From Podospora anserina (Eukaryota), in assembly GCA_017654855.1 (NCBI GenBank), contig CM030332.1, positions 7,502,001 through 7,566,000 on the forward strand: 64,000 bases of DNA, in the 5' to 3' direction. Below, one piece after another: positions 14,961 to 51,303 of the stretch (position 1 is the first letter of the stretch; every line of letters begins with the position of its first letter). The translations under genes were made by a program, and so were the position numbers. Below the pieces are notes generated by a model. The model saw only the letters and a program-made list of their open reading frames with translations. It was not told where the DNA came from and did not search any database.

Positions 14961-14970
14961 AATTAAATAA

Positions 14971-24200: not shown

Positions 24201-25560
24201 TAGTATTTATATATTAAGCTTTTAATTACTTTATTTATAAAGTAGTATTTAAACGTTTAGTTTTTATTAACGATTTCGAAAAAAAATATTTATTTTTTAA
24301 AAGCGAAGAATAATTTAATTAGGTATTTAAAAATAAAGGTTTTAAACTTAAATAAGGTTTTTAGGGTTAAAAACTTTATTTTATATAATATTATTTTTAG
24401 ATAGGGTTACTCTTTAATTATAGTAATAGACGGCGGATTAAAATTTAAAAAGGAAATTATTAAGATTTTAGAGAGGTTAAGAGTTTTTCGGGTAATAGTT
24501 TTACTTTATAACGTAAAAGTAAATAAAATAACGGAATTTAATTATATTTTAATTATATTAATACTAATAAAAATAATAAATAGAACGGAAAAAAAATAAA
24601 AATAGTAACTCCCTTATATATTATTTATTAATAAAATTATAATATAAAGTATTTATAAGTATAATATTTTTTATTTAATATATAAGTTTAACTTTATTAC
24701 GCTAATTAAAAAGGACGTACCGTTATAGAAAGTCGTTTAATAAAAAAAAATTAGTTTCGATAAATTAGGAAAATATTAAAAGGAAAGAGTAATTATAGAT
24801 TTAATAAAAGTAAGGACGAGATTATTAAAAACTTAAGAAATAAATTTAATTTTAGTAATTAAAAAGGTTAGTATAGTAAAATAGAAAGCCATAGTAAAAA
24901 AAAATAAAAAAGAGATTCGTAATATTAAGTCTAAAAATAGTATAATTAAAAGGGAGGACTTAATATTAATATATAAAATAAATAGAAAGTTAAATATAAA
25001 TATAATAAAGAAGCTATAGTACCGTTAGAACGGCCCTTTTAAAATAAGGAAAGTTAAACTAAATAATATTTATTACTTTCTAAAAATATTAAATAAAGTA
25101 TTATTACGAGTTTTTTATATATTAAATAGGGTAAAGAAGTTTTTTAAGTTAAAAAATATATATATAAATAAAGAGGATATAAATATATAATTAGGATTAA
25201 AAAGAATTAAGTAAGTATTTAGGAATAAAGTAAAGGAAGGTATAAATATAATAAAAAATAAAAATAAAAAAAAAAATAATAAAAAAAATATTAAAGAAAA
25301 TAATAATTAGGGGGAAGATTTAAATAAAACGGAAAAATATTAAAGTATAAAAAAAATTTAAAAAAAATAAAAATATAAAGGTAGTCCTAAAGAAAGGTAA
25401 ATTAAAGGATTTTTTAAGTAATTAAAGGAAAATAATAATAAAAGTATTATAATTATTATTTTTTTTTAAAAGGGTATTAAAATTTATATTATAAAAATAA
25501 AATTATAAAAGTTATTTATTTTTAAAGGAAAAAAAAATATTAAAGGAAGTAATTAATTAA
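18220..25560 (+). pseudogene. Family A gag-pol (RIPed); ends approximate
   Basis: De-RIP RT motifs FAGYPVTSLLDFFSGYDQ, LPQGATNSV, YLDDI; RNase H HFTVETDA; integrase DGG.EFK; RWDGPF ~25022-25039. Confidence 0.82.
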
Positions 25561-28500
25561 AGTAAAGATTATTATATTAAATTTTTAATTTTTTCTTTTT
25601 TTTTTCTTATTATTTTTTTTTCCGATTTACTCCTCTCTTTATACCCCTTCCTCTAATTTAAGGAAGTAAAAGATTATTTTTTTTCTTTTTTTTTCTCCTT
25701 TTTTTTATTTATTTATTATTTTTTAAATTCTTTATATTTAGTCCGCTATTCTTCCTACTTTTAATCCTAATCGACTTTTTTATTATTAAAAATTAAATTT
25801 ATAGTATTATAATTTAACTTTAATAACCTACTATTATTAAAATCCTTAAAATAAAAGCTATTTTTATTAATATTAAATTATAAATAATAAATATTTTTAT
25901 ATTAATAATTTTTATATTTTTAATCGAAATCCTTTTTTTCTATATAACTAAAGTATAATTATATTACTTTAATTTTAATCTTATCGAAAAATATTACGAA
26001 AAACCGGTAATAACTTTAATTATATTTATTATATAAATTAATATAATTAAATCTAATATATTAATATTAAACTAAATCTAATTAGGGGGGCGATATTTAT
26101 AATAATTTAATAATTTAAATAAATAAGTTTTTAAAACGATAAACCTATTTAATAATTTCGAAAATTTAATACCCGAAAAATTATTTATTAAACCGTTTAA
26201 CGAAAATCCGTTTAACAAAACCGGTCGATAACGTTTTAAAAATATAATTAATAATAGTTTTATCTATACTAATATCCTTAAAAAGTAATTATTACTCTTT
26301 TTTACCCCCCTTCTTTATTAAATTAAGGAGGAACTATTTAAAGTAAAGGGAAGTAATTATATATTTAAGATTTAAAAAAAAAATTTTAAAATATTAAAAA
26401 ATAGTTTAATAGGGGAGAGAAATATTATAATAAATATTAATATTTTTAAATATAATAGAATTATAAATATAAATAAAATATTAAATTTAAATATATTTTT
26501 TATAAGTAATACTTTAATTATTAAGAATACGGGTAAAATTAATAGGATAATAAGTAAGGGTAGTAAGTAAAGGCTTTTAAATAAAGTTTATAGTAACTTT
26601 AAATTAATTATACGTAATAAAGTTAAAAACTTTTTTAATTTAATTAAAAAGTTTTTTAATAAAAAAGGTTATAAATATTTAAGTAGTAAGGTCGTTAATT
26701 GTTTAATCGAATAAAGTAATAAATTTCTTTAAAGAAAAGGTTATTAGGAAAAAATAATTAATAAATATTAAAAAAAATAAAAAGTAAACGGGAATAAAGA
26801 AAATTAGTATAGGTATTTATAATTAGAGGATAGGACGGTACGATTGGTCTTATAAACCTCTATAGGAGGGAGATTTATTAAAACGTTTTTTCCTTTTTAA
26901 ACGGTTTACGTAATTATTTAATAATTTTACTTTATAAACTAAGTAAATAATAGAGAATAAAGATTTACCGAAGACTTTTTTTTTTTTTTAACTTTTTATT
27001 TTAAAAAAAAAAAAAAATTCTTTACTTCCCTTTCGATAACCCTTTAATTATAGATTATACTATATATTATTCCCTCTTAATTTTTATAAAATAATATTAT
27101 TAATGTTTTTTATAAAGTTTATTTATAATATATTATAAAAAAAATTTACTGTTATTAAAAAATTCGGCCCTTTTAATAATCTCGTTAAAAAAATTATTCG
27201 AAAAACGCGCCTTTAAAATATTAATAAAATTTATAATTTTAATCCTCCGTATAATATTTTTTTTTTTTAAAATAATAATATTTTTTAGCTTATTCGTTTT
27301 AACTTTAATTTAATTACCGACCTAGAAAATTATATTATAGAAAAGCAGTTTAACTAAATTAATATTACTTTCGTAAAGTAATTTTCGATTAATATTATTA
27401 AATATTTTTTTTTTAATTTAAAAATAATAATCCTCCTTAATCGAATTTATATTTACGGTATTTATATAGTTTCCTTTATTTATATTATATATAACCTTTA
27501 AAGTTAATTAAAAATTAAATAATAATTTATTAACTCGGTCCTTACCTATATTTTTTAATATTTTTTTTAGGAAATCCTTAAGCGTTATATATAGATTTTT
27601 AAAAAGCCTTTAAACCCTATTATAATAAAGTTATCGATATATTTTTTTTTATTTAATAATAATTATAATACTTTTAACCGATAATATTAAGTCCTTTTTA
27701 TTTATATTAATAACGGAAATTATTAAGTAATAAATATTTATAACGTTACTATTAGTATTTTAATTTATATAGATTTGTTAAAAAATTAAAAAAAGTATTA
27801 AATTAATACTATTTTTTATTTAATATTTTATATTCGTTACGCTTTTTACTATAATTTTAATATAAAAATAAAAAAATTAATTTATAGTAAATAGGGCGGG
27901 GCGTAAGAATATAGTTTTTAGGTTTTAAAGTATTACTATATTTACTTTTAAAAAGGTATTTCGTATAGTAAAGAAAAGGATTTAACGGTAATAAAAATTT
28001 AAAAAAAAATCGTTACTATAGAGATTATAAAACTGTAGGTATTACGGGGAAAAAAATAATAAAGTTATAAATAATTTATATAAAAAGGTTTTTAAGTTAT
28101 AAACCTAATTAAAAAGTATATAATAAGAAATAAAGAAGGAAGGGCCTAAAGGATTTAATAAACGCGGAAGGATTTAATTTACTAAATACCCTCTCGTTTC
28201 CTTTTAAGTTTTTATTAATTTCCTAATTTACTTCCCTCTTTAATTTTTTATTAACTTTAATTATTACTATTAAAAAAAAAAAATATATTGTAAATTTTCC
28301 CTTTAATTATAAAAGGTTTAAATTAAATAATATATCGAATAACTTTTAACGATTAAATAAAATAATAACCCCTTTTAGGTTCTATACTCCTATAATAATA
28401 GACTCGCCGCTCCTCTCTAGGCCTATAATTACTTATCCCCTTACTTATAATTACTTAAAATCGTTAATAATATACTTTTCGTTTAATTATATATTTAGTT

Positions 28501-29152
28501 TTATAAGATAAAAGTAAGTTCCTAAAGTTCTTTAAAAATAAAGGGAGGAGGTCGTTAAGTTACTAATTATAATAGCTCGATAGGGATAAAAGTATACTTT
28601 AAGATCCGAAAAGTAAAGGTATTTTTCTTTTTAATTAAGGAAAAATAAATAAAAGAATAGTAAAATTATATTATTTTCCCTTTTTTTTACTAAATAATAT
28701 TTTTTTTTTTTTTAATTTATAAAAGATTTTTTTTTATATATATATTTACTTACTAATTTATAGTAATTAAATATAAAGGGAGGTTTAATTTAGGGTACGG
28801 CTATAGGCTTAAAAGTATAAATAAGGAAGCGGGGCTCTTAAAGGACTTAAGGGTTTAGGGGTTATATATATAAGCGGTCTACTTCGGACATTTTATTTTA
28901 AATAGGAAATCGACTTTTATTCTTTTCTTCGTATTTTATACCTTACACGCGTATAGGTAATTCTGGCCCTTTAATTAAGCTAATCCGGTGCTTATTATAT
29001 AGCCTGCGAGCCTATAGTGTTTTTTTTTTATCCTACTTAAAGTGCGGCCTGCGAGCGAGTTACTGTCACGCAGGTGTGTTTATTTTGAGACCTATTGAGG
29101 GTATATTTGTAGTGTTGTGGTTATTTTGTGTGTTTTCTCACCATTTTACTAC

Positions 29153-32100
29153 CAATAGTGGCACTAGGCTATTTCTATACAATTCAGGGCCCTTGGAATA
29201 CCTAAATTTCTGGAAAATCCTAATTCGGTAAACGCCCGGCTTTCCGACCTACAGAAGGCAGCCCTGCTATTAACCCTCAGAAATACACTAAAGGAAGGCC
29301 CGTTATCCACTATAGCCTTCGAAACCGACCCCGTTGTGGCCTATAAGCGCCTTCGCTCACAGTACGCTCCGGCGCAGCCTACCCTCCGAGACGAGCTATA
29401 TAAGGCCTACCACCACTTGCAGTTCGATAGGTCTATACCTATCGTGGATTTCAACGCCCAATTTAACACCTACGTAAGTAGGCTCGGGGCCTTAGGCGTT
29501 AAAATAGCCCAAATCGACCAACTAAACTACTATTTTAATGTACTGGAAAACCATTTTCCACAGTAGGCCGAGCGCTATAAAGGCCTACTTCGGCAGGAGC
29601 AATGGCTCTACCATACAGAAGGCAAGCCTACTAGGCTAAGCCTTTTGTATTTCCAGGAAGACCTTTTAGCCGAAACCCGTAATTCGGCTACTTCCACTGC
29701 CCACCAATTACAGGCCCTATAGGCTACCTACAAGCCTATTAGTAGCGAAAAGAAGCCTAACTTTTAGGCTTCTCAAGCTCACCGGTCCTCACCAAATAAG
29801 GACCAAAAGCCCTATAAAAAACAGGGCAATAAGCAGTGGAAGAAAGGCCTGAAAAAGGACGACCGCTATAACGACCGCTATAACAGCCGCAAAGACGGCC
29901 GTAAGGACAGTCGCAAAGACAACCGCAAGGACCAAAAGGACCTACCCGCTACCGAGGCTTTTACTATAAGCTACGACCTTAACTTAGGCACTATATTTAG
30001 AAGTAATATAACTAAAGAATATAGCGACCTAGGGCCTGATCCTCCCGAAGAACTGGCTAAATTTAGCTACTCAACCGCTACACCACGTACCCAGTGGCTC
30101 TTCGATATAGGCTCTACAATACATATCTGCAACAATAAAGCCTTATTTACCAACCTACAGTTCTCTTCTTCCCTGGGCTATATTAGTACAGGCGGTAGCC
30201 CAGTCAAGCCGCAAGGCAAAGGCACTATAAAAGTTGAATTCTTCAGTGGTTTTGAGGGCAAAAAAGCGGTATATACTACTGTAGCCCTTAAAGAGACCCT
30301 CTATATTCCAGACTTTCCACTGAATATAGTTAGTGGTCACAGGCTCTACGCCTCCGGTAGGACCCTTCTTAAGGACCGCCTATATTCGGCTTCTAGGAAG
30401 CTACTGGCCCTCCTTAACTTTAAGAAAAATAGGTTCTTTTTTACTACCAAAACCACGGTTCCAGCTAAAATAGAGCATTTAACGCTATAAGCATACGGCT
30501 CTATTTAGTGCTACAGCACTAAAGACAGCGATTCAGACCCTGAATCAACTACCATTACGCCTGAATTTCCAGCTACTACAGCGCTTACCACAGCGCTTAC
30601 CACAGTGCCTACCACAGCGCCTACCACAGCGCTTACCACAGCGCCTACCACAGCGCCTACCACAGTGCCTACCACAGCGCCTACCACAGCGCCTATCACA
30701 GCGCCTAAACCAATTACCACTACGGCGCCTACCCCTCGCCGTATAGGGCATTCGCCCTACCAATATAACCAAGCATTGATTCAGGCTACAAGACTCTAGC
30801 ACGTTCGATTAAGTTATATAGGCCTAAACCTTCTAAAGAAAACTGCCCTAATTACTAAGGGCATACCCAATTTACAGAAGGTACAGCCTACAGATCTAAC
30901 CTATAAAAGCTATGACGCAGCTAAATTACTGCGTAAACCTTCTAAAAGGCCTGTAACGGACCCACCGTATACGCTGAGTCGAATAGAAGGGGATATATTT
31001 ATGATTCGACCCACCCCACTGAACAGCAGGCCTTACGGGCTTATTTTAGTGGACCGTAAGACCCGGTACAGGCTTGTTAGGCTCCTAAAAACTAAGGACG
31101 AAGTCGCTATAGAGGCTCGCTCCGCTATAGAGAGCTTATATAATACTTATAAGCGGTACCCGGCACAATTCCACTACGACGGGGGCAAGGAAATTCGAAG
31201 GCTACTGCCCTACCTTACTAAAAAAAGTATAACCTTTAATGAGTCTAGCCCATACGCCCACCACTAAAACGGCCTAGCCGAGCGCTCTATTCGGGTAATT
31301 TTAGAGCGTCTACGAGCCACTATAGTAGCCTCTAGCCTACCACTTACCCTCTAGTACTACGTAATTAGCTCTATTATGGATATTATTAACCGTACAGCTA
31401 CTTCCACTAAGGAATTTACGCCCCACCAGTTATTTTTTAACGAATTAGTGCCTTTATAGGCCCCTCACGTTCCTAACCTCGGACCTTATAGGGCTATAGG
31501 CGCTGAAGTTCTAGTACTTACACCGCTTAAAAAACGTATTACTGTAAGGAAGTTAGAGCCTAAAGTTATTAAAAGTAAGCTTCTAGCCGTACTAGGCAAT
31601 AATACTTACTTAATGTAGCTAAGCTACCGGCAAGTAATCTAAACGCTATTCGTTAAACTATACGAAGATTATAAGCCTTATTTAAAAGGACCTATAGCCT
31701 CCACATCGCAACTAAAGCTTCTAGAACTGGAAGATATCGAGCTTTCAGAAGGGGAACCCCTATAATCACAGAAGGGGCACTTACTGCAACAGTACCTCCT
31801 AGGCCTATACTTATAGTAATAGCACCTCTAAAGCTTACTAATATCGAAGTACTACTTCCGCAGGCCACTAAGTTACAAAAGGAGGAATTCGAAGTAGTAG
31901 ATAACGATACTATAGATACCACTGCTCTAGTATATTATTTTATTAACCAGGCTGCTACGGCTGTTACCTACAGCACTGCTTCTATTAGCACAGAACCTAG
32001 GACCTTTAAACAGGCCCTAAAGCACCCACTAAAGGACCAGTAGCTACAGGCCTCCTTCAGTAAACTACAGCAGCTACTAAATTCCAAAACCTTCTACTTC

Positions 32101-32599
32101 ATCAACCGCTCTCAGGCTCCAAAAAGGCCTATTACTAGCCGATAGGTCTATAAAGCTAAAAAGGACTTACAGGGCTAAATTATTAAATTTAAAGCCCGGC
32201 TAGTAATTAGAGGCTTCTAACAGGTACCCGGAACCGATTTCACGGAGACCTTTGCAGCCACTACGGCACCACCTACCTAGCGGGTTTTACTAGCTATTAT
32301 AGCTAAAGAAGACCTAGAAATTAAGCAAATTAATTTCGTTAGGGCCTTTCTTAACGCTAGTGTAGACTCCGATATATATATAGAAGTCCCTAAAGGCCTA
32401 TACGAATATAGCCTTAGTAGCCAAACCGCTATAGACCTTCTGAAACAACATTGCTAGGACCCTTCGAAGGACCAAGTTATAGTACTAAAAAGGTCCCTAT
32501 ACGGCCTAACAAAGGCCTTACCAGCACCCAAGTTCCAGCGCTTTTTAGAGCTAATAAACTACCGGAAGCCTAGTACTTATAAAGGCCCTACGGCCTAGT
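29153..32599 (+). pseudogene. Copia B gag-pol (continuation after A insertion), RIP stops and internal RT/RNase H deletion
   Basis: QWLFD.GS..HICN protease ~30092; WHVRLGH ~30797; integrase YDGGKE / ESSPYAHHQNGLAER; RT FKARLV.RGF.Q; ORF-track 29336 and 31001 ORFs are fragments of it. Confidence 0.9.
30577..30732 (+). repeat. 12-bp coding minisatellite (ACCACAGCGCCT; TTAP units) in Copia B pol
   Basis: About 11 tandem units between protease and pre-integrase. Confidence 0.93.
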
Positions 32600-32630
32600 A
32601 AGTGGGCACCTAGCACTCCCATAGAAGGGG

Positions 32631-33249
32631 TGTTAATGTGTGGGTATTACTAAGTGCCCTACTTACTGCCCTACAGATTAATATTACAGTGGGCAGTACT
32701 ACTATAAACAGTAATGGAACTTCCCGGCTTGGATCCCTTTAAAATATTCTTTACAAGGGACCCTTAAAGGCTTACAGGGCTACTGTGGCCTGAGGCTTAG
32801 TTAATGGATACTAAAACCTTCCAAAGTAGCTACAGGCTTACGTAGTAAGTTACCACAATAGTGTGATTTACAGGGCACCTCTGCTGCCGAAGGTTCTATA
32901 GATTTCCGTGAGTCTACACTAGACCCACCTAAGCCCACCAAATACCCCAAAGTGGTATAGGGGCTTCCAGGGCCTACAGGACCCACAGTAGGCTTACGAA
33001 GGCCTATATATAAACCTCTCCTCTCTCCTGTAAAATAGTTTTCTTTCTTTCCTCAAGGGCAAAAGCTTAAGGCTAAGGCCAAGGGTAATAAAGGTAATTC
33101 TTATTCTTTATACCTCACTGTATTACAGTGCTTTACCTTCCTTCGGCACTGCCGTCGTATCCTCCCGCTTCCGCTTGCGCACTGCTATATTTTACAGCAA
33201 CCCTATATAGGTTCTATATTATAGGCCTATCAGGGCTTACCAGCTAACA
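32631..33249 (+). repeat. Copia B 3' LTR (619 bp)
   Basis: TG...CA, preceded by PPT. Confidence 0.95.
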
Positions 33250-35186
33250 ATATTAATAACGGAAATTATTAAATAATAAATATTTATAATAATATTATTA
33301 ATATTTTAATTTATATAAATTTATCGAAAGATTAAAAAAAATATTAAATTAATGTTATTTTTTATTTAGTATTTTATATTCGTTATACTTTTTACTATAA
33401 CTTTAACGTAAAAGTAAGGAAATTAGTTTACGGTAAATAAAGTAAAGTATAGGAATATAGTTTTTAAGTTTTAAAGTATTACCGTATTTATTTTTAGAAA
33501 GGTATTTTGTATAGTAAAAAGAAGGATTTAACGGTAATAAAAGTTTAAAAAGGAGATTATTATTATAAAGATTATAAGACTATAAGCGTTATAAAGAAAA
33601 AAATAATAAAATTATAAATAATTTATATAAAAAAGTTTTTAAATTATAAATTTAATTAGAGGGTACGTAATAAAAAATAAAAGAGGAAGGGCCTAAAGGA
33701 CTTAATAAACGCGGAAGGATTTAATTTATTAAATACCCTCTCGTTTCCTTTTAAATCTCTACTAATTCCCCGGTTTACTTTCTTCCTTAATTTTTTATTA
33801 ACTTTAATTATTATTATTAAAAAAAAATATATATTATAAGTTTTTCTTTTAATTATAAAGGATTTAAATTAAATAATATATCGAATAATTTTTAATAATT
33901 AAATAAAGTAATAACCCCCTTTAAATTCTATATTTCTATAATAATAAACTCCCCGCTCCTCTTTAGGCTTATAATTACCCGTTTTCCTATTTATAATTAC
34001 TTAAAATTATTAATAATATACTTTTTATTTAATTATATACCTAGTTTTATAAAATAAGAGTAAGCTCCTAAAGTATAACGAACCCCTATATAGAACCTCT
34101 GAAAGGGATACAGGTTAAAGGTAACTTCTAATAATTAGTTCGGTGTAGCTAAACAGTGCACAACAAGATATCTCGATGTAAACACAAGATGCCGTGAATA
34201 TAAGCTTAAATTACATACTGCGGAACTATCTATCTACACCAGCCAGTTCCTCCGTATATATAGACCTTGGGGCCGTGAGGTGCTCGCCCTGCTATAGCCC
34301 CGATCACTCCTAGCACATTGCATCCTGCATTGTGCTCGTCGTGCTATACCTCTGATCACTCCTAGCACATTGCATCTGCATTGTGCTCGTCGTGCTATGC
34401 CTCTAATCATCCCTAGCATCTTGCATCCTGCAGACTGCTCGTGAGCCTTGGCGCCATAGCACTTTTGCCTAGCCCTGATCGGCTTGTTCCCTGACTTCCT
34501 GAATGATTGGCTAGGGGCGACCTGCGCCCCACATGTGGCGCGACCTGCCGTTGGGTTAACTGTGACATAAAGTTCCTTAAAAATAAAAGGAAAAGGTCGT
34601 TAAGTTACCGGTTATAATAATTCGATAGGGACAAAAATATACTTTAAAATCCGAAAAGTAAAGGTACTCTTCTCCCTAATTAAGGGAGAATAGATAAAAG
34701 GATAATAGGATTATATTATTTTCTTTTTTTTTATTAAATAATTTTTTTTTTTTTAATTTATAAAGGATTTTTTTTTTATATATATATTTATTTATTAATT
34801 TATAGTAGTTAAATGTAAAAGGAGGTTTAGTTTAGGGTGCGGCTACTTCTCTAAAAATATAAGTAAGGAAGCGGGGCTCTCAAAAGACTTAGGGGTTTAA
34901 GGGTTATATATATAAGCGGTCTACTTCGGACATTCTATTTTAGAGAAATCATCCACTTTTATTTCTTTATATTTTGTGCTCTGCACGCGTGCAGGCAATC
35001 CTGGCCTTCTGATTAGGCTAACCCGGTGCTTATTATATAGCCTGCGAGCCTATAGTATCTTTTATCTGTCCTAAGTAAAGTGCGGCCTGCAAGCGAGTTA
35101 CTGTTACGCAGGCGTGTCCATTTAGGGACCTGTTGAGAGTATATTTGTGGTGTTGTAGTTAGTTTATGTGTTTTCTTACCATTTTA
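33250..35186 (+). mobile_element. Family A host copy, 3' part with variant 3' LTR (34828-35186), interrupted by solo LTR F
   Basis: Matches copy 2 from ~27704 onward; LTR ends ACCATTTTA at 35186. Confidence 0.9.
34074..34567 (-). mobile_element. Solo LTR F (D-family R-U5, distinct U3 with ~52-bp tandem repeats)
   Basis: Perfect 5-bp TSD TAAAG on both sides; left ~190 bp match D/E R-U5. Confidence 0.93.
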
Positions 35187-35342
35187 ATAGTAGCCCTGTA
35201 AGCCTTTAAAGGTCCCTTGTAAAGAATATTCTAAAGGGATCTAAGCCGGGAAGTTCTACTATTGTTTATACTAGTGCTGCCCACTGTAATATTAATTTGT
35301 AGGGCAGTAAGTAAGGCACTTAGTAGTACCTATATATTAATA
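35187..35342 (-). repeat. 5' part of another Copia B LTR, interrupted by the family A host copy
   Basis: Reverse complement of the first ~156 bp of LTR-B. Confidence 0.9.
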
Positions 35343-35447
35343 TTAATAAATAAGCTAGCTTTTTTTAGAGCCGTTAAAATATTACGAACGTAATTTAAAT
35401 ATTTTTTTTTTATATAGCTATAAATAAGGATATTATTTAGGTATACG
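35343..35447 (-). pseudogene. Gypsy H reverse transcriptase fragment (YLDDILIYS region)
   Basis: Continues 59357-59771 across the ATACG TSD of element E. Confidence 0.8.
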
Positions 35448-35854
35448 TGTGACGAACCCCTATATAGAACCTCTAAAAGGGATACGGGTTAAAGGTAACT
35501 TCTAATAATTAGTTCGGTTCAGCTAAATAGTGCATAACAAGATATCTCGATATAAATATAAAATGCCGTAAATATAAATTTAAATTGCATATTGCGGAAC
35601 TATTTATCTATACTAGCCAGTTCCTCCGTATATATAGTTTTTATACTAAGCCGTAATTAGTCTCCTAAGGCTATTAATTACCTCGGTTTAGTTTGCTTAG
35701 TGCCTTAATTATACTAATTACCTTTGCTTAGTCTACTTAGTACTCTAATTACACTAATTACTTTGCTTTTACTATAATTAACTTCCCTATACGTTCTCCC
35801 GATTAGCCCTTTATTCCCGTAGCCCTATAACCGTCCTATACTAAGGTTATAATA
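35448..35854 (-). repeat. Gypsy E 3' LTR (407 bp)
   Basis: Matches 58990-59356 plus one extra ~40-bp unit. Confidence 0.92.
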
Positions 35855-35957
35855 CGATATTCCCCCTCTTAGGTTAACGCCCCGATAACTTAGCTCGCTT
35901 ATCTCTCCTATCGATAACCTTAAGTAAATTTTCCTCCCTTATTACTATCCTTCTATA

Positions 35958-36554
35958 ATATTTAACCGCGTTAAGAAATTTACGCCGAAAGGTCCCTCGA
36001 GTACCCTTCGCCGTTAGAATTTTATAGCTATTACCTTTATTTTCGGTAACGAAATACTTCCCTATTCTTCTTACGAGGCCCTTAATATCTCCGATTACCG
36101 CACTTCTAAACGCTCCTCTAAATATAATTACTATATATATTCCGGTCGCTCCGACTGCGATATCCTAGGCCTTACTCTTGCGTTAATAGCCTCCTTACGT
36201 CGCTAAAAAGAAAAACTAAACGCCGACGAATAATAGGCTCGTACGGCTATACTATAGGCTACTTCGAAACTCTTGTAAGTAAATACCTAACGCCGTACTT
36301 TAATTATTAAATTCCGTCGTTTAGCCGCTTACAAGGAGCGGGTAATTAAGGATTTAAAGCGGGAAAAAGTATAGGTTTCTTTCGCCGCTAATCTTCCTTT
36401 AACCTTTTCCCTTAACTAAACTTCCGATATACTAGACTAGCTTAGTTAGTCCTTACCGGATAACTTATCTCTTAATCCTAGCGTAGCCGGTTTTTCCTTC
36501 TTTACTACTTAAAATACCGTTAATAATACGCCTTCCCCTTTTTAAAATAATTAA
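35958..36554 (+). pseudogene. Antisense accessory gene of E: six-Cys Zn-cluster-like domain, coiled coil, acidic tail; end approximate
   Basis: De-RIP MSNRVKK...EMLPCSSCEALNISDCRTSKRSSKCNYCVHSGRSDCD (last Cys still TGC at 36156), then LRRQKEKLDADEQQAR. Confidence 0.7.
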
Positions 36555-36899
36555 AGTATATAATATTATTTATATTTAATTCCCTTTATACTTTTTAATT
36601 TTATAGTATAATATATAATATATCGATTATTATATTAAAAACGTAAATTCGATTTTTATTAAAGTTCTCGAATCTCTATATTATTATTATTTAACGGTAA
36701 TCTAAGGACTTATTTTTTTTATTTAAGTTTTAGTCGGTTTAAATATCATTAATAAAAAAATTTTTATTTATTTAAATAAATAAAATTTGTTTTTAATTTT
36801 TATAAATTATTTATAATTAAATATTTTAATTAATTAATTAAATATTTTAATTATTTTTTATTAAACTATAAATTTAATATTTCTTTTATATTATATTTT

Positions 36900-37534
36900 T
36901 ATTAATGTGTGGGTACTACTAAGTGCCCTACTTACTGCCCTACAGATTGATATTACAGTGGGCAGTACTGCTATAAGCAGTAATGGAACTTCCCGGCTTA
37001 GATCCCTTTAGAATGTTCTTTACAAGGGACCCTTAAAGGCTTACAGGGCTACTGTGGCTTGAGGCTTAGTTAATGGATATTAGAACTTTCCAAAGTGGCT
37101 ACAGGCTTACGTAGTAAGTTACCACAATAGTGTGATTTACAGGGCACCTCTGCTGCCGAAGGTTCTATGGATTTCCGTAAGTCTACACTAGACCCACCTA
37201 AGCCCACCAAATACCCCAAAGTGGTATAGGGGCTTCTAGGGCCTACAGGACCCACAGTAGGCCTACGAAGGCCTATATATAGACCTCTCCTCTCTCCTAT
37301 AGAATAGTTCCTTTCTTTCTTTCCTTAAGGGCAAAAGCTTAAGGCTAAGGCCAAAGGCCAAGGCCAAGGGTAATAAAGGCAATTCTTATTCCTTATACCT
37401 CACTGTATTACAGTGCTTTACCTTCCTTCGGCACTGCCGTCGTATCCTCCAGCTTCCGCTTGCGCACTGCTGTATTTTACAGCAACCCTGTATAGGTTCT
37501 ATATTATAGGCCTATCAGGGCTTACCAGCTAACA
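36900..37534 (+). mobile_element. Copia B solo LTR inside E, no TSD
   Basis: Full LTR-B; flanks ATTTT / ATATT; adjacent E integrase sequence missing. Confidence 0.92.
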
Positions 37535-40500
37535 ATATTATTATATTTAATGCTAATTACTATATTTTTTAATTTTAATAATTTAATAATAAAGTTTATT
37601 ATAATTAAATTTCATAATTATTTTACTATTAATAATAACTTTAGAAATTTATAAAGTTTATATTTCGTAACCTTTATTTTTTTATACGTATAGTATAACT
37701 AAATAGCTTCCTTAATATTATTTTTAATTTTTAATTAATTAAAATATTATTTAATTTTTTCTATAGTTTTAACGATATTTATATACCCTCCGAACTTTAA
37801 CCTATAGATCTCTATTACTAATACCGTCCTATTATTTAATATTATATACGTTCGATTTTTATACTATAGTCTTCCCTAATTATTTTTTTAAATACTTTAT
37901 AGCTTTAGCTTTTCCTATTAATATTATTTTATAATATTATTATTTAATTTCCTTTAATATTTATTAAAAATAGTTTTCTCGTAATATATTATATAATACA
38001 TTATTTACGGCTATAATAGATATTTAAGGGTATTATCTAGTGCCTTCTCGAGTAATAGTAGTAATTCCCTAGGTATATCCTTATAATAGTCGGCTCGCCG
38101 GTTAAGTACGTTTACCTTAACGTTCTCCGAACCCTTCTTATAATTAATTTAAAAATTAAATTTTAAAAGAAATTTTAATTATTATATTTATTATACGTTA
38201 AGGACCTTTATAATAATAAAATATTATAGATTTTTATAATTTATATAGATTTATATTTCGTAATTAATATTATTAAAGTATAACCTTTATTCCTTAAATA
38301 TTTCGATAATAGTGAGTAGCTTTTTATTATAAATTAAGTAATTTTAACGTATTTCTTTTAATTTCTTTAAAAAGAAAACTATTAAATATAACTTCCCGTT
38401 ATTATTTTACTATTTTAATTACCTATTAATCGTATAGTTTAATATATTAGCTTTAACTTCGAACGGTCGATTAAAGTTTAATAATTTAAATACTAAATCC
38501 TTTAAAATAACCTTTTTTAGTTCCTAAAAAACCTACTCTTTTTCCTACCTTTACCGGAACTCCACGTCTTTCTTAATTAAATAATTAAATAATTATACGA
38601 TTCCTATATACTTATAAATAAATATTTAATAAAAATTTAGAAATTTTAAAAATTCTTTAATATATATTTATAATTATAATATAAACTAATCTTTAATTAT
38701 TATAATCTTTTTAAATTCTATACGAACTTTATTTAATAATATTAAATATTTTAAATATATTATTTTTTATATATAAAGCTTATTTTTTTTATTAATTAAA
38801 AATCTAATTCCGTATAACGCGTTAAGTATCTTTTATATATATCGCTTATATTCCTTTAAAATATATAAATAAATAAAAACATTATTAAAATAATATATTA
38901 TTATTTTATCGAGGTACTTCCGGATTATATAATTAACGAGAGATTAAAACGTTACGGGCGTATTAATTAATTTAAATAGTATTATAAGATACTTAAAATA
39001 ATTATAGGATATACGAAACGTTATTTTTTATTTATTTCCTTTTTTAATCCGTATATAGGTATACCCAATAAATATATTTAAATATATAAAGTATCGCGCT
39101 TTAATTAATTAACTCCGTAATTTAAATATTAATAATAATAAATAATTATGTTTTACCGTTTTATTATTTAATTAACGGTAGTCTATATATAATTATAAAT
39201 TACTATTTTTTTTTAATACGAAGAATATAAAGTATTTTATTAGTAATATAAACTTTTTAATATATCCTTTCTTTAAATTCTTATTTAAGTATTTCCGTAA
39301 TTCTTTATTTTACTTATCATTAATATAATAAACCTTAAATAACCGTAATTTAACTCCTTTTTTTAATTTAATTTTATAGTTTTATAGTCTTTACTTTAAA
39401 AACCCCTCTAAATATTTAGCCGTAAAGGCTAGGTATCCTCGATATTCCACCGGTACTATTTTTTTTTACTTTTCTTTATATTATTATAATAAACGTACTT
39501 ATTAATTTCCGATATCTTTATTAATATTATTAACTTTATTTCTTTAATCTTACCACCTATATCAATAAAATATACTATTATTTTTTAAGTTCTTTACGGT
39601 AGTACCGTGGAGGGTACTTGTCCTACACTCTACTCTATATATACTTTTAATTTCTTATCGTTAATTAAATATTTTTAAAGTTTTTTTTAGTCGTAAATAA
39701 TTATTATCCCTCTAATCGATATTTAAATTATAATTTTTATACTATAATTACTTTAGGATTATATCCTTCGAAAGTCCTATATTTATAATATTAAATATAA
39801 TTAAAATTATTTTTCTTTTAACTATAATATTTAAAAGTGTTAAAATACAGCACTTATTTGTGGATTTTACAGTATGTTCTTTCTCGTGGCTTACAGCACT
39901 CAAAGGCTTCAAGCCACAGCGCCTATAACGCCCATAGCGGTTATAAGGAACTATAAAGTTTTTATATAAATTATTGTGGCTAACTGAACCGGTAGAAGTT
40001 ATGGGGATTAATAAGGAGGAAAAAGAGGTTTTGGATGCCTATAAAAGGCTCCCCTCCTAGTGTATTTGGAATAATCCTTTTCTTTCTTAAGTTTAAGTCA
40101 AACAGTTAAAATCAATATACTGGTTTACTATACTTTTGTAGGGCATAGTTCCCTATATTTACCTTCCTTCGGTACTACCTTATACTATCGTACCTCGCAA
40201 TCCAAAAACCCTAGAGTCTTTAGGTAATTGCTTCCGACTTACCTAGAAGGCATATAATTAGCTTACCGATAATATATTTTAATAAATTATAAGCCCGGAC
40301 TTATATTTAAATTCTAGCGAGTTCCTTTATTCTACGTTCCTATAGCGGTTTCTTACCGTAAGCCCTGTTTTTATTAAAATGGTAAGAAAACACACAAAAC
40401 AACCACAACACCACAAATATACCCTTAACAGGTCTCAGAATAAACATACCTACGTGACAGTGACTCGCTCGCAGGCCGCACTTTACGTAGGACAAAGAAA

Positions 40501-40823
40501 AGACACTATGGGCTCGCAGGCCACATAATAAGCACCGGATTGGCCTGATTAGAGGGCCAGAATTGCCTGCACGCGTGCAAGGCACAAAATACAAAGAAAA
40601 GAATAAAAGTCGATGTCCTCTCTAAATAGAATGTCCGAAGCAGACCGCTTATATATATAACCCCTGAACCCCTAAGTCCTCTAAGAGCCCCGCTTCCTTA
40701 CTTATACTCTTAAGCCTATAACCGTACCCTAAACCAAACCTCCCTTCGCATTTAACCACTATAAATTAATAGGCAAATATATATATAAGAAAAAAATCTT
40801 TTATAAATAAAAAAAAAAAAAAA

Positions 40824-42458
40824 ATATCGTTTAGTAAAAAAAAGGGAAAACGATATAATCCTACTATCCCTTTATTTATTCTCCTTTAATTAAAGAGAAA
40901 AATACTTTTACTTTTCGGATTTTAAAATATACTTCTGTCCTTATCGAGTTATTATAATTAGTAACCTAACGACCTCCTCCCTTTATTTTTAAAGAACTTT
41001 AAGAGCCTACTCTTATTCTATAAAACTAAGTATATAATTAGGCGAAAAGTATATTATTAGCGATTTTAAGTGGTTATAAGTAGGGGGACGAGTAATTATA
41101 GGCCTAAAAAGGAGCAGCGAGTTTATTATTATAGGAGTATAGAACTTAAAGAGGGTTACTACCTTATTTAATCGTTAAAAGTTATTCGATACGCTACTTA
41201 GTTTAAACCCTTTATAATTAAAGGGAAGACCTACGACGTATTTATTTCCTTTAATAGTAATAATTAAAGTTAATAGAGAACTAGGGAGGGAAGTAAACCG
41301 AGGAATTAATAGAAATTTAAAAGGAAATAAAAAGGTGTTTAGTAGGTTAAATCCTTTCGCGTTTATTAAATCCTTTAGGCCCCTCCTCCTTTATTTTTTA
41401 TTATATACCCTCTAATTAAGCTTATAACCTAAAAACCTTTTTATATAAGCTATCTATAACTTTATTATTTTCTTTCCCGTAACGCTTACGGTCTTATAGT
41501 CTCTATAGTAATAATCTTCTCTCTAAGCCTTTACTACCGTTAAATCCTCCTTTTTACTATACGAAATACCTCTCTAAAAGTAAGTACGGTAATACTTTAA
41601 AACCTAAAAACTATATTCCTACGCCCCGCCCTATTTACTATAGGCTAGCCTCCTTACTTTTACGTTAAAACTATAATAAAAAGCGTAACGGATATAAAAT
41701 ACTAAATAAAAAATAGTATTAGCTTAATACCCCTTCCAATCCTTTAACGAATCTATATAAACCAAAATACTAATAATAACGTCGTAAATACTTATTACCT
41801 AATAGCTTCCGTTATTAATATAAATAAGGAGGACTTAATATTATCGGTTAAAAGTATTATAATTATTATTAAGTAAAAAAAAGCGTATCGATAACTTTAT
41901 TATAATAGGGTTTAGAGGCTTTTTAGGGATCTATATATAACGCTCGAGGATTTCTTAAAGAAAATACCGAAAAATATAAGTAAGGACCGAACTAATAAAT
42001 TACTACTTAGCCTCTAATTAACCTTAAAGGTTATATATAACGTAAGTAAAAAAAGTTATATAAATATTATAAATATAAATCCGATTAAAGGGGGTTATTA
42101 TTTTTAAATTAAAAAAAAAATATTTAATAATATTAATCGAAAACTATTTTATAAAAATAATATTAATTTAGTCGAGCCGCCTTCCTATAATATAATCTCC
42201 TAGGTCGGTAATTAAGTTAAGGTTAAAACGAATAAACTAAAGAGTATTATCGCTTTAAAAAAAGAAAATACCGCGCGGGGGACTAAAACTATAGACCTTA
42301 TCGATACTTTAAAGGTGTATTTTCCGAATAATCTCTTTAACGAGATTATTAGGAGGGCCGAATTTCTTAATAGTAGTAAATTCTTTCTATAATATATTAT
42401 AAATGGACTTTATAAAAAGCGTTAATAATATTATTTTATAAGAATTAAGAGGGAGTAA
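40824..42458 (+). pseudogene. Putative antisense ORF X1 of family A (~540 codons, unknown product)
   Basis: One frame reads protein-like throughout after RIP reversal (e.g. KTVDLIDTLKARFPNDLFNEIVGRAEFLD); stops are TAA/TAG only, which RIP makes weakly informative. Confidence 0.45.
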
Positions 42459-42774
42459 TATATAATGTAATCTGTGATTAAAGGATTATCGAAAGGGAAA
42501 TAAAGAATTTTTTTTTAGAATAGAGAGTTAAAGAGGGAAAAAGATTTTTGGTAAATCTTTATTCTTTATTATCTACTTAACTTATAAAATAAGATTATTA
42601 AATAGTTACGTAAGCCGTTTAAGGAGGAAAGAGCGCTTTAATAAGTTTCCCTCCTATAGAAGTCTATAGGACTAGTCGCACCGTTCTATCCTTTAATTAT
42701 AAATACCTATATTAATTTTCTTTATTTTTATTTACTCTTTATTTTTTTTAATATTTATTAATCGCTTCCTCTTA

Positions 42775-43806
42775 ATAGCCTCTTTTTTAAAAAAACCTAC
42801 TACTTTATTTAATTAAACGGTCAACGACTTTATTATTTAAGTATTTACAACCTTTTTCGTTAAAAAACTTCTTAGTTAGGTCGAGGGAGTTCTTAACTTT
42901 ATTACGTACGATTAGTCCGAAGTCGTTATAAACTTTACTTAAAAACCTTTATTTACTACCCTTACTTATTATCCTACCGACCTTACCTATATTCCTAATA
43001 ATTAAAGTATTACTTATAAAAGGTACGTCTAGGTTCGGCGTCCTACTTACGTTTATAACTTTATTATACCTAAAGGTATTAATATTTATTACGATATTTC
43101 TTTTCCCTATTAAGTTACTCTTTAATACTTTAAAATTTCCCCTTTAAATCTTAAATACGTAGCTACTCCCCTTTACTTTAAATAGTTCTTCCTTAATTTA
43201 ACGAAAAAGGGGGGTAAAAAAGAGTAGTAATTATTTTTTAAGGATATTAGTGCGGATAAAACTATTATTAATTATATCTTTAAAGTATTATTAACCGGTT
43301 CCGTTAAACGGATTTTCGTTAAACGGTTTAATAAGTAATTTTTCGGGCGCTAGCTCTTTAAAATCGTTAAACAGGTTTATTACTTTAAAAGTTTATTTAT
43401 TTAGGCTACTAGATTATTATAAGTACCGCCCCCCTAATTAAATTTAATTTAATATTAATATATTAGATTTAGTTATATTAATTTATATAATAAATACGAT
43501 TAAAACTATCGCTAATTTTTCGTAACGTTTCCCGATAGGACTAAAACTAAGGTAATATAGTTATATTTCGGTTATATAGGAAGAGAGGACCTCGATTAGA
43601 AATACGGGAATTACTAGTATAAGGATATTTATTACTTATAGTCTAGTGTTAATAAGGATAGCCCTTACTTTAAGGATCTTAATAGTAGTAGATTATCGAA
43701 GTTAAATCGTAGTACCGTAAGCTTAATTCCTAATAATAAGGAAGTCGATTAGGATTAAAAGTAGGAAGAATAGCGGGCTAAGTATAAAGAGTTTAAAAAA
43801 TAGTAA
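42775..43806 (+). pseudogene. Putative antisense ORF X2 of family A (~340 codons, unknown product)
   Basis: Single frame from (M)ASF.EEP to ..EVDWDWKWEEWRAKYEEF; flanked by low-complexity spacers. Confidence 0.5.
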
Positions 43807-43959
43807 ATAAATAAAAAAAAGGAGAAAAAAAAAGAAAAAAAATAGTTTTTTATTTTTTTAAATTAGAGGAAGGGGTATAAAGAGAGGAGTAAATTAGAAA
43901 AAAAAATAATAGGAAAAGAAAAAAAAAAAATTAAAAATTTAATATAATAATCTTTACTT

Positions 43960-46900
43960 TAATTAATTACCTCCCTTAATATCTTTCCTCCCTTTAAGAA
44001 TAGATAATTCTTATAGCTCTATTTTTATAATATAAACTTTAGTACCCTTTTAAAGAAAAATAATAATTATAATACTTTTATTATCGTTTCCCCCTAATTA
44101 CCTAAGAAGTCCTTTAGTTTACCTTTTTTTAGGATTACCTTTATACTTTTGCCCTTCTTAAATTTCTTTTATACTTTAATATTCTTCCGTTCTATTTAAG
44201 TCTTCCCCCTAATTATTATTCTCCCTAGTATTTCTTTTACTATCTCTTTTTCTTTATCCTTATTTTCTACTATATCTATACCTTCCTTTACTCCATTCCT
44301 AAATACCTATTTAACTCTCTTTAGTCTTAGCTACATATCCGTATCCTCTTTATTTATATATACGTTTTTTAACCTAAAAAATTTTTTTACTTTATTTAAC
44401 ATATAAGAAGCTCGTAATAGTACCCTATCCAGTATCTTTAGGAAATAATAAATATTACTTAGTTCGACCTTCTTTACTTTAAAAGGGCCGTCCTAATAGT
44501 ACTATAGTTTCCTTACTACACTTATATCTAACTTTCTATCTATTTTATATACTAATACTAAGTCCCCCCTTTTAATTATATTATTTTTAGGCCTAATATT
44601 ATAAATCCCTTTTCTGTTTTTTTTTATTACGGCTTTTTATTTTACTATACTAACCTTCTTAGCCACTAAAGTTAGATTTATTTTTTAGGATTTTAATAGT
44701 CTCGCCCTTACCTTTATTAAATTTATAATCGCTCTTTTTTTTTAATATCTCCTTAATTTATCAAAACTAATTTTTTCTTATTAAACGACTCTCTATAACG
44801 GTACGTCCTTTTCGATTAGCGTAATAAGGTTAAATTTATATATTAAATAAAAAATATTATATTTATAAATACTTTATATTATAGTCCTATTAATAAATAA
44901 TATATAAGGGAGCTATTACTTTTACTTTTTCCCCGTCCTATCCGTTATTTTTATTAGTATTAATATAATTAGGATATAACTAAATTCCGTTACTCTATTT
45001 ACTTTTACGTTATAAAGTAAAACTACTATCCGAAAAACTCCTAGCTTCTTTAAAATTTTAATAACTTCCTTCCTAAATTTTAATCCGCTATTTACTATTA
45101 CGATTAAAGGGTAACCCTATTTAAGGATAATATTATATAAAATAAAGTTTTTAACCCTAAAAACTTTATTTAAATTTAAAACTTTCGTTTTTAAATATTT
45201 AATTAAATTATCCCTTACTTTTAAAAAGTAAATTTTTTTTTCCGAAGTTATTAGTAAAAACTAAACGTTTAAATATTATTTTATAAATAAAGTAACTAAA
45301 AGCTTAATATATAAATATTAATCCTTTTAACGCTTCGGGCTCTATTATTAATATTATTTATATATTTTAATCTAAACCTCGATATTAGCGTATATACCCT
45401 TCTAATAATAGTTTTTTATTATTCGGGTATAAGTAGCTTCCCGTCCTTTATAACCTATCTCGTTATAATATATATTAAAGACTTTTTCCCGTTTAATTAG
45501 AGGATTAATAATTTTTTTAGGGGGAAAGCTTTCTTTATTTAGTTTAAGAAATAAAATTCTATTTTCGAGAATTATTTTTAGAGTATTATTCTTAATGGTC
45601 TGAACGTTAAACTTCGTTTTAGCCTTTAGTTCCGTACTAGTCGCGAGGAACTCGGTAATAATATAAGAGTAAGGAGACTATAGTTTATTTAAATAGGGGC
45701 TTTACTTAATAACTTTCTTTTTTTTTTTTTTAATATTTACCCGCTAAATACTTATTTCTTAAATATCGTTTTTCTAGATCTTTACGTTAACCTTATTATT
45801 AATATCTAGCTCTAACTCCTTTTCCCTTAAATTAAAGGGGTTAAGTGGTTTTCTCGATAGTACATTTACTATAAGGTTCTTACTTTTAAAAATATAAATA
45901 ATTATAAAGTTAAAAAATCTAATCTATCCTAACTATCTTATTATTAAAGCGCCGGGAACGTTACTAGCCGCCCTTTAGACTTAATAGATTACCACTTAAA
46001 CGTCCGTTTCCACCGTAAAATATACCCCGAAAAGATACTTTCTAAATCTCTTTAAAGTATATAATAGTCCTCTTAACTCCCTCTTAATAGTATTATACTT
46101 TTATTTAGCCGGGCTTTAAATACTACTCTTAAACCGATAAGGGTACCGTTTTTTATTAGGTTTTACTTATTTAATTACCGTTCCTTACCCCGTTAAATTT
46201 ATATTAAAAATAATAAAGATTTTACCGAAACGATCGTTATTAAATATTAAAGAAGTTAAATATAGTACCTTTATAATTAAAAAAGTAAATTACTCTATTA
46301 TACTTTATTAAGCTTCCGTCTATTCTTATTTCGTATCCTTCCTTATTAAAAAATATAGCGGAACTGCAATTAAATTAAAGAGAGGTACCTATAGCCGATA
46401 GTAGCCGGTAATCCCTAAAAAAGTATAAATATCCTTAAAACTATAGTAAGTTCGCTATTCCTTTATCTTTACTATCTTTATTTAATTAAGGAAGCGCCCG
46501 TCCGGTATATAGGAATAGCTAAGGATAATAGCTTCCCGTTTATACTAAAGGGATTTTACGGCTATAATTATAATTCCTATAAGCTTACAGTTAAATAAAA
46601 CTACATTAATATTCTTTAAATACTTTAGGACTTACTTTTTAATTCCTAACCTTTCTTTTTTACTATTATAATCCTACCTTAGCCCTTTTACTATAATATC
46701 GTTTAGGTATAGCCGATATACTTATAGGATAAGATTTTAAAAAACTTTAGTTACGGCTCTTTAGAATTAGGCCACTAAGTTAGTAGCTCCTTAAGGTAGG
46801 GTATATATCCTAAATAGGCCGATAAATATCGCGAAGGTAGTAAGGTCTCGGTTCGTTAGGGCTAATTTAATTTAGTTATATCTAGAAAAGAAATTAAGTA

Positions 46901-49900: not shown

Positions 49901-51303
49901 TTTTACCGTATTAAAAGTACTTTTTTAGTGGGGGAGGGTTATTACGGTACTACCCTCCTAATTTTCCGAACTAGGTTTTAATATTAATAATAGGGAAGGT
50001 ATTAAAAAATAAATTTATTTCTTTATTAAAGTTAATACTAAAATCCAGGGAGTAAAGTACTTAGTTTTTTAGGTATTAAACGCGGGTCCTTATTATTTTA
50101 AATTTACTATTTTCCGGTATAAAGAAACCACTATAGATATTTACCCTTAAATACTATAGTATTATCTTTCTATTTATTATAATATTAACCGCTATATATT
50201 AATTAAGTACCTCGGCTACTTAATTAAAAGTAATAGGGAAGGGTATAATAATTAATTTATTTTCTTTATAGATTTTTCCTCTTACGTTATACCTATTTTT
50301 AATTATATTATTAATTTAATCGCTCTAAGTAATAAAATTTATAGATTTTAAACGACATTCGGATCCTCTTCGGTTAATAAAGGTTATTTTTATTAATTCG
50401 GAGAATTTTATTTAAAAGCGGTTAGTAACCCTAACTTTTATTACCTCTTTCTCTCCGGTCGGTATTCAAGAGAGTAGTTTAAAGTAATTAAAAATAACCT
50501 TTTTTAATTTACTTATACCTTTAAAAATAATTTTAACGTAAAAGTTATTTAATTCCCTATAGATATCTTTGTTTTATTGGGGGTTATAGATTTTAAAAAG
50601 GCGTTTAAAGCGGATAACTAGGATAAGCTAAGTATCGGTAAGTATAGGTAGGTCTATATATTTATTAATTTATTTTTTTATATCGAAATTATATTAAAAT
50701 TTAAATTTATAAACGCGAAAAGTAAATTCCACGATATAATACTCTTTATAGGTATTTTCGAAACGCTTTAAATATTCCGTAAAGTATTTTCCTTTAAAAT
50801 TACTTTTAAAACCGATTTTCTTTAGATTAGGAAATTTATATTAAGGAAAATATATAGGTATTATAGGATAGAGGGTTAAATAATTAAACGTAGGGGACCC
50901 TTAAAAGTAACGATAGTCGGGGTAAATTCCTATAAAATATAAGTATCCGGGTTATTAAAATTAATATACGAATTTAGAAAGAGGAGCGGGATATCCGGTA
51001 TACCGAGTGGGAGGCGTAGTATAATTTTAAGTAGTAGGATTTAGGTAGGTACGAGGTCCACCTAGTACGTTAGGAGCGTTAGGCCTTATAGTCGGGCTAC
51101 TTTAATTAGAAAGGGGGCGAGGGGTTTTAGTATCTTTAAGGTAAGTGTAGTTCGTAACCGGGGAGAGGACGAATAGTAATAATTCCGGGGACCTAGCTAC
51201 CGGAATAATTACTTTTACTATAAAATAAGCCGTAGAAGCTTAATACCCTTAGTTATTACCGGGAAAGCTAGCCGAAGCGATAGGTAGGATATTATTGGAT
51301 ATA
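43960..51303 (-). pseudogene. Family A copy 3 gag-pol (RIPed); ends approximate
   Basis: Colinear with copy 2 gag-pol; gag motif FEGKYFTEYLKRFE ~50750-50800. Confidence 0.82.

Follow-up and report, generated by a model that had tools for sequence, protein, structure and literature searches.

Exchanged U3 halves and an adjoining antisense six-cysteine gene in probable crapaud-type retrotransposons of Podospora anserina

Background

Why do the long terminal repeats (LTRs) of one retrotransposon family keep one half and differ entirely in the other, and does the gene that lies next to the differing half travel with it? The question is raised by a 64,000-nucleotide stretch of the Podospora anserina genome (assembly GCA_017654855.1, contig CM030332.1, positions 7,502,001 to 7,566,000 of the forward strand; hereafter the window), whose first 60 kb are nested AT-rich LTR retrotransposons with the TpA excess and CpA/TpG loss that mark repeat-induced point mutation (RIP). 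The family concerned is represented by two full elements (D and E) and two lone LTRs (F and G). A sequence-only reading of this DNA had proposed that its LTRs combine a constant repeat and unique 5' part (R-U5) with swapped unique 3' (U3) halves, that these move together with an antisense gene encoding six cysteines (Cys), and that the arrangement was a candidate for an undescribed system. We found that the modular-LTR pattern is real but already published, and that the antisense gene is a genuine, under-described addition to it. Overall, D, E, F and G are probably RIP-killed members of a crapaud-type family with template-switched U3s and an adjoining accessory gene that is inherited by default.

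A shared LTR half and exchanged U3 halves

All six LTRs of the family (D5 and D3, the 5' and 3' LTRs of D; E5 and E3, those of E; and the lone F and G) have in common the 188-189 bp that run from the TATA box to the LTR end. Each of the 15 possible pairs aligned over 186-189 bp with z scores of 35-49, a score reached in 0 of 200 shuffles, which bears out the common part of about 190 bp described earlier for D, E, F and G. Within it, the exact word GGGGTTCGTCACA is intact at three sites (D3, E3 and G) and carries RIP-type changes in D5, E5 and F. The E copy at 35448 is indeed an LTR, E3; the sequence-only reading overlooked E's own 5' LTR at 58990-59356.

The U3 halves fall into three types. 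The D-type is present in D5 (8729-9151, +; U3 8729-8963, TATA-to-end part 8964-9151) and D3 (15710-16132, +; U3 15710-15944, with GCCAAT at +56 and GGTGAG-type words, TATA-to-end part 15945-16132), and the F-type in F (494 bp, 34074-34567, -; U3 34263-34567, TATA-to-end part 34074-34262). The E-type is present in E3 (407 bp, 35448-35854, -; U3 35637-35854, TATA-to-end part 35448-35636), in E5 (367 bp, 58990-59356, -), which has one repeat unit fewer than E3, and in G (438 bp, 59772-60209, +), with an E-like U3 at 59772-60020. Members of one type align well (z 55 for D5-D3, 26 for E3-E5, 18 for E3-G and 19 for E5-G). Between types z ranges from -1.0 to 1.8 and 9-171 of 200 shuffles reach the score, so the types are unrelated, in agreement with the earlier count of at least three unrelated U3 halves with G resembling E.

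A GCCAAT-like box had been reported for each U3, and we recovered it: five of the six carry the exact word, and E3 has a RIP-type variant at the site where E5 has GCCAAT. Internal repeats, also ascribed to every U3, are clear in F (three ~52-bp units, with GCCAAT at +57 and no RIP signature) and in the E-type (31-49-bp units). For the D-type the picture is divided, as the five GCTCAC/CTCACC words of the D5 U3 exceed all shuffles (0 of 200), whereas D3 alone does not rise above them (68 of 200). The E-type repeats look like CCAAT-box arrays, with four, four and three RIP-tolerant words of the form C[CT]AAT[CT]A[CT]. CGG-N-CCG or CCG-N-CGG pairs are found in none of the six U3s.

Because RIP produces transitions only, transversions gauge real divergence. 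F and E5 differ by 0 transversions across the 189 bp from TATA to end, and their U3s are unrelated (z 0.6). The U3 swap is therefore real, and U3 divergence does not simply track that of the rest of the element. The part named constant R-U5 is shared as claimed, but probably includes about 42 bp of core promoter, from TATA to the putative transcription start.

The primer-binding position (9152-9165; 58976-58989) is complementary, RIP changes allowed, to 15986-15995, 42-44 bp past TATA. This resembles Tf1-type self-priming, which would place the transcription start 42-44 bp past TATA; the match is a 10-letter purine/pyrimidine word that can occur by chance in 189 bp, and the start site is deduced from it. 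The LTR word had 0 matches in viral contigs and 35 loci in metagenome contigs, with LTR or protein similarity in 0 of the 35, and a pattern made from the E-type alignment gave 275 matches in viral contigs and 77 in metagenome contigs, none of them confirmed. Six words from the LTRs, looked up in published text, matched only papers on hepatitis B primers with no relation to the family among the 20 matches listed of 58.

An antisense six-Cys gene beside the U3

Both full elements carry a gene on the opposite strand between pol and the 3' LTR. In E (35958-36542, +) it is a continuous frame with RIP stops, in which the six-Cys motif C-x2-C-x7-C-x8-C-x2-C-x7-C precedes a long helix and an acidic tail. 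In D it consists of a six-Cys part (15347-15568, -) and a distal coding part (14941-15306, -), which is coiled-coil-like with an acidic tail and broken by RIP stops. The frame shifts between the proximal and distal parts of D, which would imply an intron near 15350-15302.

The E frame matched one intact relative, P0004 of Triangularia verruculosa (BLASTP 61%, E 6e-69); 158 of the 171 aligned codons are identical or RIP-compatible, and all six codons under the Cys of this relative are TAY or TGC. P0004 used as a query found six further relatives, including one from Podospora pseudopauciseta, and a profile search found 13, including Fusarium proteins. The six-Cys part of D yielded two relatives with phmmer, P0011 (E 5e-8) and P0012 (E 5e-4). 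Compared with P0012, whose motif reads C-x2-C-x8-C-x8-C-x2-C-x6-C, the D gene has TAY at six of the six Cys positions. The nearest named intact proteins belong to T. verruculosa, T. setosa and P. pseudopauciseta. The six Cys are conserved among the intact relatives, five of them invariant in 15 of 15, and the six-Cys spacing and basic N-terminus are retained from Sordariales to the Fusarium relatives. Judged by these intact relatives, the predicted antisense six-Cys genes are real. The D-type and E-type proteins are distant homologues (hhalign 95%, E 4e-8, 62 columns). They are therefore old alleles of a single accessory gene rather than pieces of unrelated cargo.

Counted as codons that are identical or RIP-compatible, the E frame is nearer to the protein of T. 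verruculosa (158 of 171) than to that of P. pseudopauciseta (108 of 139), a hint of old subfamilies that several species have in common or of horizontal transfer. P0008 and P0009, E-type genes from other samples, have predicted N-terminal extensions that start like the reverse-strand reading of D over the polypurine tract and the start of the LTR (VCDTM-P/L-PL), which suggests that they too may adjoin a 3' LTR.

Gene and U3 differ as one block between D and E

Transversions between D and E amount to 1.9% (15/773) in the leader and N-terminal part of gag, 7.0% (42/597) in the reverse transcriptase (RT), 9.6% in RT-RNase H, 11.8% (78/660) in the integrase and 7.1% at the chromodomain end. The antisense region is barely alignable (z 3.1, 18% transversions), and the U3 lies beyond alignment. 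Homology ends at D 14921, the end of pol, and restarts at D 15938, at TATA; from the antisense gene to the U3, the two elements have in common no more than a stretch of about 15 bp in the polypurine tract (15693-15709 in D, +). The antisense gene and the U3 thus differ as one block between D and E. A differing U3 does abut a differing six-Cys gene in both, as the sequence-only reading saw, although "co-varying" is a statement about n=2, since D and E are the window's only elements with both gene and U3. From the proposed movement of the two as a cassette, what stands is that the U3 has been exchanged by recombination and that D and E differ in a single block (14921-15938).

Contigs from four of 24 listed sequencing runs (X1, X5, X11 and X18) were aligned to D 14300-16200. 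With 32 pieces out of 1932 and 24 loose ends out of 336 considered here, linkage cannot be counted. No RNA run is on record for 34074-36554, which carries no information about expression. Among these pieces, X1 record 1 and X11 record 12 follow pol to 14926 and then end or continue unlike D, and two others (X1 record 3 and X11 record 15) join a D-type gene or leader to a D-type U3; X1 record 3 could stem from the same insertion in a different strain. Among the loose ends, those at 15758, 15901 and 15941 show further U3 types and crossovers within the U3. Co-variation of gene and U3 over two elements and one or two contigs is what adjacency without intervening homology predicts. X5 record 24, aligned on 14502-15565, is a 6125-nt contig with a depth of 563 (about 80 for single contigs). 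Its antisense region is D-type and less mutated, which suggests that the D-type gene sits in a young multi-copy element.

One 451-nt contig of X18 skips 15553-15624 (-), a candidate 72-nt antisense intron that opens, read on the minus strand, with the donor GTAAGT and contains CTAAC as a branch site; the acceptor position in D reads TAA. The other three runs, which are DNA-type, list no such joint. The contig differs from D mostly by A>G and T>C, as from a less-mutated source copy, and departs from D 54 bp before the LTR, so it derives from a related but different variant. We regard it as modest evidence for a spliced antisense transcript. The intron, if real, would remove the conserved N-terminal start of the protein.

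The contig, X18 record 16, has a second skip, of 294 nt, at 15054-15347 (-), with GT-AG ends in D and between 9-bp direct repeats, which, if due to splicing, would delete the coiled-coil part of the protein. As an intron this skip is ambiguous: seven of nine cut positions suit it no less than the GT-AG position does, and direct repeats flank it.

RIP footprints

The U3 of F is unmutated (17.7 CpA+TpG per 100 bp) and those of D nearly so (13), and the antisense genes are saturated (0.9-2.1; 0.9-2.3 when the equally saturated E3 U3 is included). In D, saturation covers exactly 8964-15709, from TATA of the 5' LTR as far as the final base ahead of the 3' LTR, sparing both U3s and the 3' R-U5; the TATA-to-end part has 26 losses in D5 and four in D3. 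As a control we used an 11.9-kb Gypsy family with constant LTRs, whose LTR ends are spared too, mostly as a gradient and in one 5' LTR as far as its inner border. Such footprints may preserve how far homology with past pairing partners extended, and the D tract is suggestive here, as it is expected if these partners had D's gene but a different U3. As proof that the gene travels with other U3s we rejected the footprint, the control family being likewise spared in its LTRs; it is a hint against a strict cassette. The RIP pattern gives no support for escape from silencing.

Likeness of the protein to Zn(II)2Cys6 factors

The canonical Zn(II)2Cys6 cluster reads C-x2-C-x6-C-x5-12-C-x2-C-x6-8-C, and in Gal4-type proteins the loop between the second and third Cys contacts DNA. 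Like members of this class (PF00172; Gal4, Hap1, Put3, Lac9, Pho7), the antisense protein arranges its six Cys around two C-x2-C pairs, after which come a long dimer-type helix and an acidic tail. The model of P0004 shows a Cys region with a predicted local distance difference test (pLDDT) score of 74-78, a 65-residue helix (74-138) and a disordered tail, and the D-type model has a pLDDT of 50. Foldseek with the P0004 model gave HAP1 as the best row (E 2.2), Zn2Cys6 proteins in eight of 20 rows and a root-mean-square deviation of 2.2 over 33 columns to 1cld. A sequence search of PDB gave nothing below E 0.1, and VIA-align returned generic coiled coils only, its list filled by the helix (best Z 6.8). 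P0006 and P0019 bear automatic database names of the Zn2Cys6 type. The likeness is weak but consistent; on paper the predicted protein would work as a Gal4-type design.

Anatomy of the elements and setting of the window

Element D (8729-16132, +) is a full-length, RIP-mutated Ty3/Gypsy retrotransposon of chromovirus type, 7404 bp long, that sits inside the LTR of another family. Its 423-bp LTRs differ by transitions alone (0 transversions), and its flanks are TATAA/CATAA. With stops read as X, Pfam matches were obtained for Retrotrans_gag (E 0.005), RVT_1, RT_RNaseH, Integrase_H2C2 and SH3_Tf2-1; the chromodomain had no Pfam match in the RIP-mutated frame. E, which spans 35448-59356, is a single full element broken up by nested insertions, with the target-site duplication (TSD) ATACG at 35443-35447 and 59357-59361, and tiles of D map collinearly onto its minus strand at 59185-57412, 39751-37500 and 36900-36761. 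Its pol (36761-39840, -) encodes RT, RNase H, integrase and the chromodomain end, with about 770 bp of the integrase gone where a foreign 640-bp LTR (~36893-37532) interrupts it. Leader, gag and linker (57412-58989, -) lack about 1.0 kb that D has at 10129-11170. F, a solo LTR, has the TSD TAAAG, and G is flanked by GCTAG/TATAG and has no clean TSD.

The 11.9-kb Gypsy family, the second in the window, has constant 364-bp LTRs and occurs at 17276-29148 (+), 40374-52244 (-), 1-7786 and 33250-35189; in one copy the 5' half is inverted (1230-7786). A Copia-like internal region with light RIP lies at 29152-33258, with a 12-bp tandem array at ~30573-30733. Its 640-bp LTR recurs at 36893-37532 and, split by D, at 8494-8729/16133-16539. 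The RIP-mutated nest of about 60 kb (1-60200) stops sharply before an ordinary gene region, and in both size and content it is like the Podospora centromeres of which a preprint (10.64898/2025.12.02.690432) tells in its available text. From about 62.3 kb there is an ordinary fungal gene (62322-64000, +) with Pfam TRP_N and TRP (fungal TRP/flavin-carrier type), truncated by the window edge.

Comparison with known systems

The closest description is that of crapaud in the Podospora anserina complex (Westerberg et al. 2024; PMC10787394), which, in the available text, has 14 U3 subfamilies with the U3 before the TATA box and a conserved 3' half. Recombinant LTRs were reported there, with template switching proposed, and LTRs of subfamily representatives measure 339-443 bp. 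U3-defined subfamilies with template-switch recombination are thus published, and the claim of an undescribed system is not supported. The window LTRs likewise share the 3' half from the TATA box and have unrelated 5' halves, and D (423 bp), E3 (407 bp), E5 (367 bp) and G (438 bp) lie within the published range. Crapaud is ~7.3 kb long with gag and RT-RNase H-integrase-chromodomain, and D, at 7404 bp, has gag, RT, RNase H, integrase zinc and SH3. E's lack of ~1.0 kb of D after gag may be compared with a ~1.1-kb internal deletion class in that study, for which the text states no position. Crapaud is enriched in AT-rich centromeric regions (10.64898/2025.12.02.690432). Unlike our elements, crapaud as described in the main text of PMC10787394 has two drawn open reading frames (ORFs), with 0 matches there to "antisense", "zinc" or "additional ORF", and the antisense six-Cys gene and its two types are not part of that description.

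Other systems share single traits. The brtn gene (Zhao et al. 2011), as cited in PMC7264820, PMC8365987, PMC4227169 and PMC5987419, is an antisense gene of the Boty-like element (BcGypsy1) of Botrytis cinerea and Sclerotinia. It too lies between pol and the 3' LTR of a fungal chromodomain Ty3/Gypsy element; the available passages of the citing papers give no six-Cys motif for it, and the likeness is one of position. Beyond brtn, no zinc-cluster antisense gene in fungal Gypsy elements was found in the literature as covered by listings, abstracts and the papers cited here. Differing U3s on a common backbone are also known from the Tnt1 superfamily, whose subfamilies are set by U3 modules (PMC1838419), and from Ty1/Ty2 LTR hybrids (cited in PMC10787394); in contrast to D and E, an element-encoded regulator beside the U3 is not described in these sources. 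First-strand transfer can join R/U5 of one RNA to U3 of another, and reverse transcription generally leads to U3 shuffling (PMC6894440). Our 13 profile matches include no protein from Botrytis or Sclerotinia.

The VANC anti-silencing proteins of VANDAL transposons are encoded by the element and act on their own family's DNA. They, and the retroviral antisense/accessory genes discussed in PMC7264820, offer an analogy; element class and protein are different.

Discussion

Template switching with default inheritance of the neighbouring gene has probably produced the pattern, as follows. Subfamilies that share TATA-R-U5, primer site and gag-pol could have their RNAs co-packaged, and RT would switch template within shared sequence (TATA/R, leader-gag, pol), homogenising the shared parts. 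Switching would place old, unrelated U3s onto the same R-U5; the swap itself is observed, and DNA gene conversion is an alternative route that would give the same result. On the genomic RNA the antisense gene adjoins the U3, with the ~15 bp of shared polypurine tract between them. Because of this adjacency and so short a shared tract, gene and U3 would mostly travel as one block by default, as they are seen to do in D versus E and, we infer, beyond them. The 3' LTR most likely doubles as the promoter of the antisense gene, as the one apparently spliced contig would suggest. We lean slightly towards a product that acts as a nuclear zinc-binding coiled-coil accessory protein, tuning the element's own transcription or chromatin.

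Several observations weigh against parts of this explanation. The crossover between F and E lies outside R, upstream of TATA and about 42 bp before the putative start site, and therefore calls for more than first-strand transfer alone. Assignment of the four to crapaud or a sister family is by anatomy and description, not by sequence, and F, at 494 bp with an extra ~52-bp repeat, falls outside the published LTR range. For the protein, Foldseek gave no row at E 0.001 with the P0004 model, and PF00172 (Zn_clus) matched 0 of 15 intact relatives at E 0.1. The second Cys spacing, x7 in the E-type and x8 in the D-type, departs from the canonical x6, and the corresponding E-type loop is acidic and lacks basic residues, so DNA binding is not assured. 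As for the transcript, the splicing is read from one contig of a run whose RNA label is a guess, and the 294-nt skip may be a deletion or a template switch.

A matched pair had been one of two options in the sequence-only reading. Spelled out, the antisense protein of each subfamily would bind the words repeated in its own U3, the two would co-evolve and selection would keep them together. The joint difference of gene and U3 between D and E with its sharp boundaries, the own repeated words of each U3 and the differing Cys2-Cys3 loops of the two protein types all accord with this idea. So do the contigs, since among the 32 of 1932 pieces two bridge the D gene or leader into a D-type U3 by at least 31 letters on each side and in none does the match track the D gene as far as the LTR edge and depart there. 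Nevertheless, we consider such a pair improbable. The window offers n=2, X1 record 3 may be the same insertion, and block inheritance is expected from adjacency alone; U3s also recombine internally, the CCAAT-box-like arrays of the E-type could be read by host factors, and the relatives lack a Zn_clus match. The RIP tract of D would fit partners with D's gene and another U3, though this is no more than suggestive given the spared LTRs of the control family, and the available text of PMC10787394 reports little association between LTR subfamily and internal region, with the antisense gene not analysed separately. In its boldest form, which seems to us just as doubtful, a Gal4-like protein specific to the family would have diverged along with its U3 target array to give several regulator/enhancer pairs insulated from one another, a portable 3' module plugged between the shared pol end and TATA-R-U5 by template switching.

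A stronger contender, though one that we still hold to be unlikely, is that the protein does not regulate the LTR at all: it would be a zinc/coiled-coil adaptor that assists in integration, nuclear import or the assembly of particles, or regulation would fall to the antisense RNA itself, with U3s tuned to host factors only. The lack of a significant Zn2Cys6 match, the acidic Cys loop of the E-type and a 65-residue helix as the strongest structural feature favour this, as does the candidate 72-nt intron, which would cut out the conserved N-terminal start; both options are discussed for antisense ORFs in PMC7264820. The six-Cys spacing and basic N-terminus kept from Sordariales to Fusarium, and weak structural rows that favour Zn2Cys6 proteins, speak for a regulator instead. 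Very unlikely, finally, is the proposal that U3s, with the gene, diversified to evade homology-based silencing by RIP. The U3 of F is unmutated and those of D nearly so beside saturated neighbours; but both antisense genes and the E3 U3 are saturated, the common gag-pol would draw RIP to any full copy, and the ends of the constant-LTR family are spared too. RIP escape was also tested and rejected for crapaud, where solo LTRs had less RIP, in a study of 150 full copies (PMC10787394).

After that rejection, the crapaud study, in its available text, left open the cause of the 14-way U3 split (PMC10787394). A hidden third gene, in at least two deeply diverged types beside the U3, bears directly on this question. 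If the portable module were true, each of the 14 published U3 subfamilies would be a regulatory "channel" under the control of the antisense gene that belongs to it. A matched pair would add a rare example of a sequence-specific regulator encoded by the very retrotransposon on which it acts. Otherwise, the family would combine a known modular LTR with an unannotated accessory gene that is often mis-called a host transcription factor.

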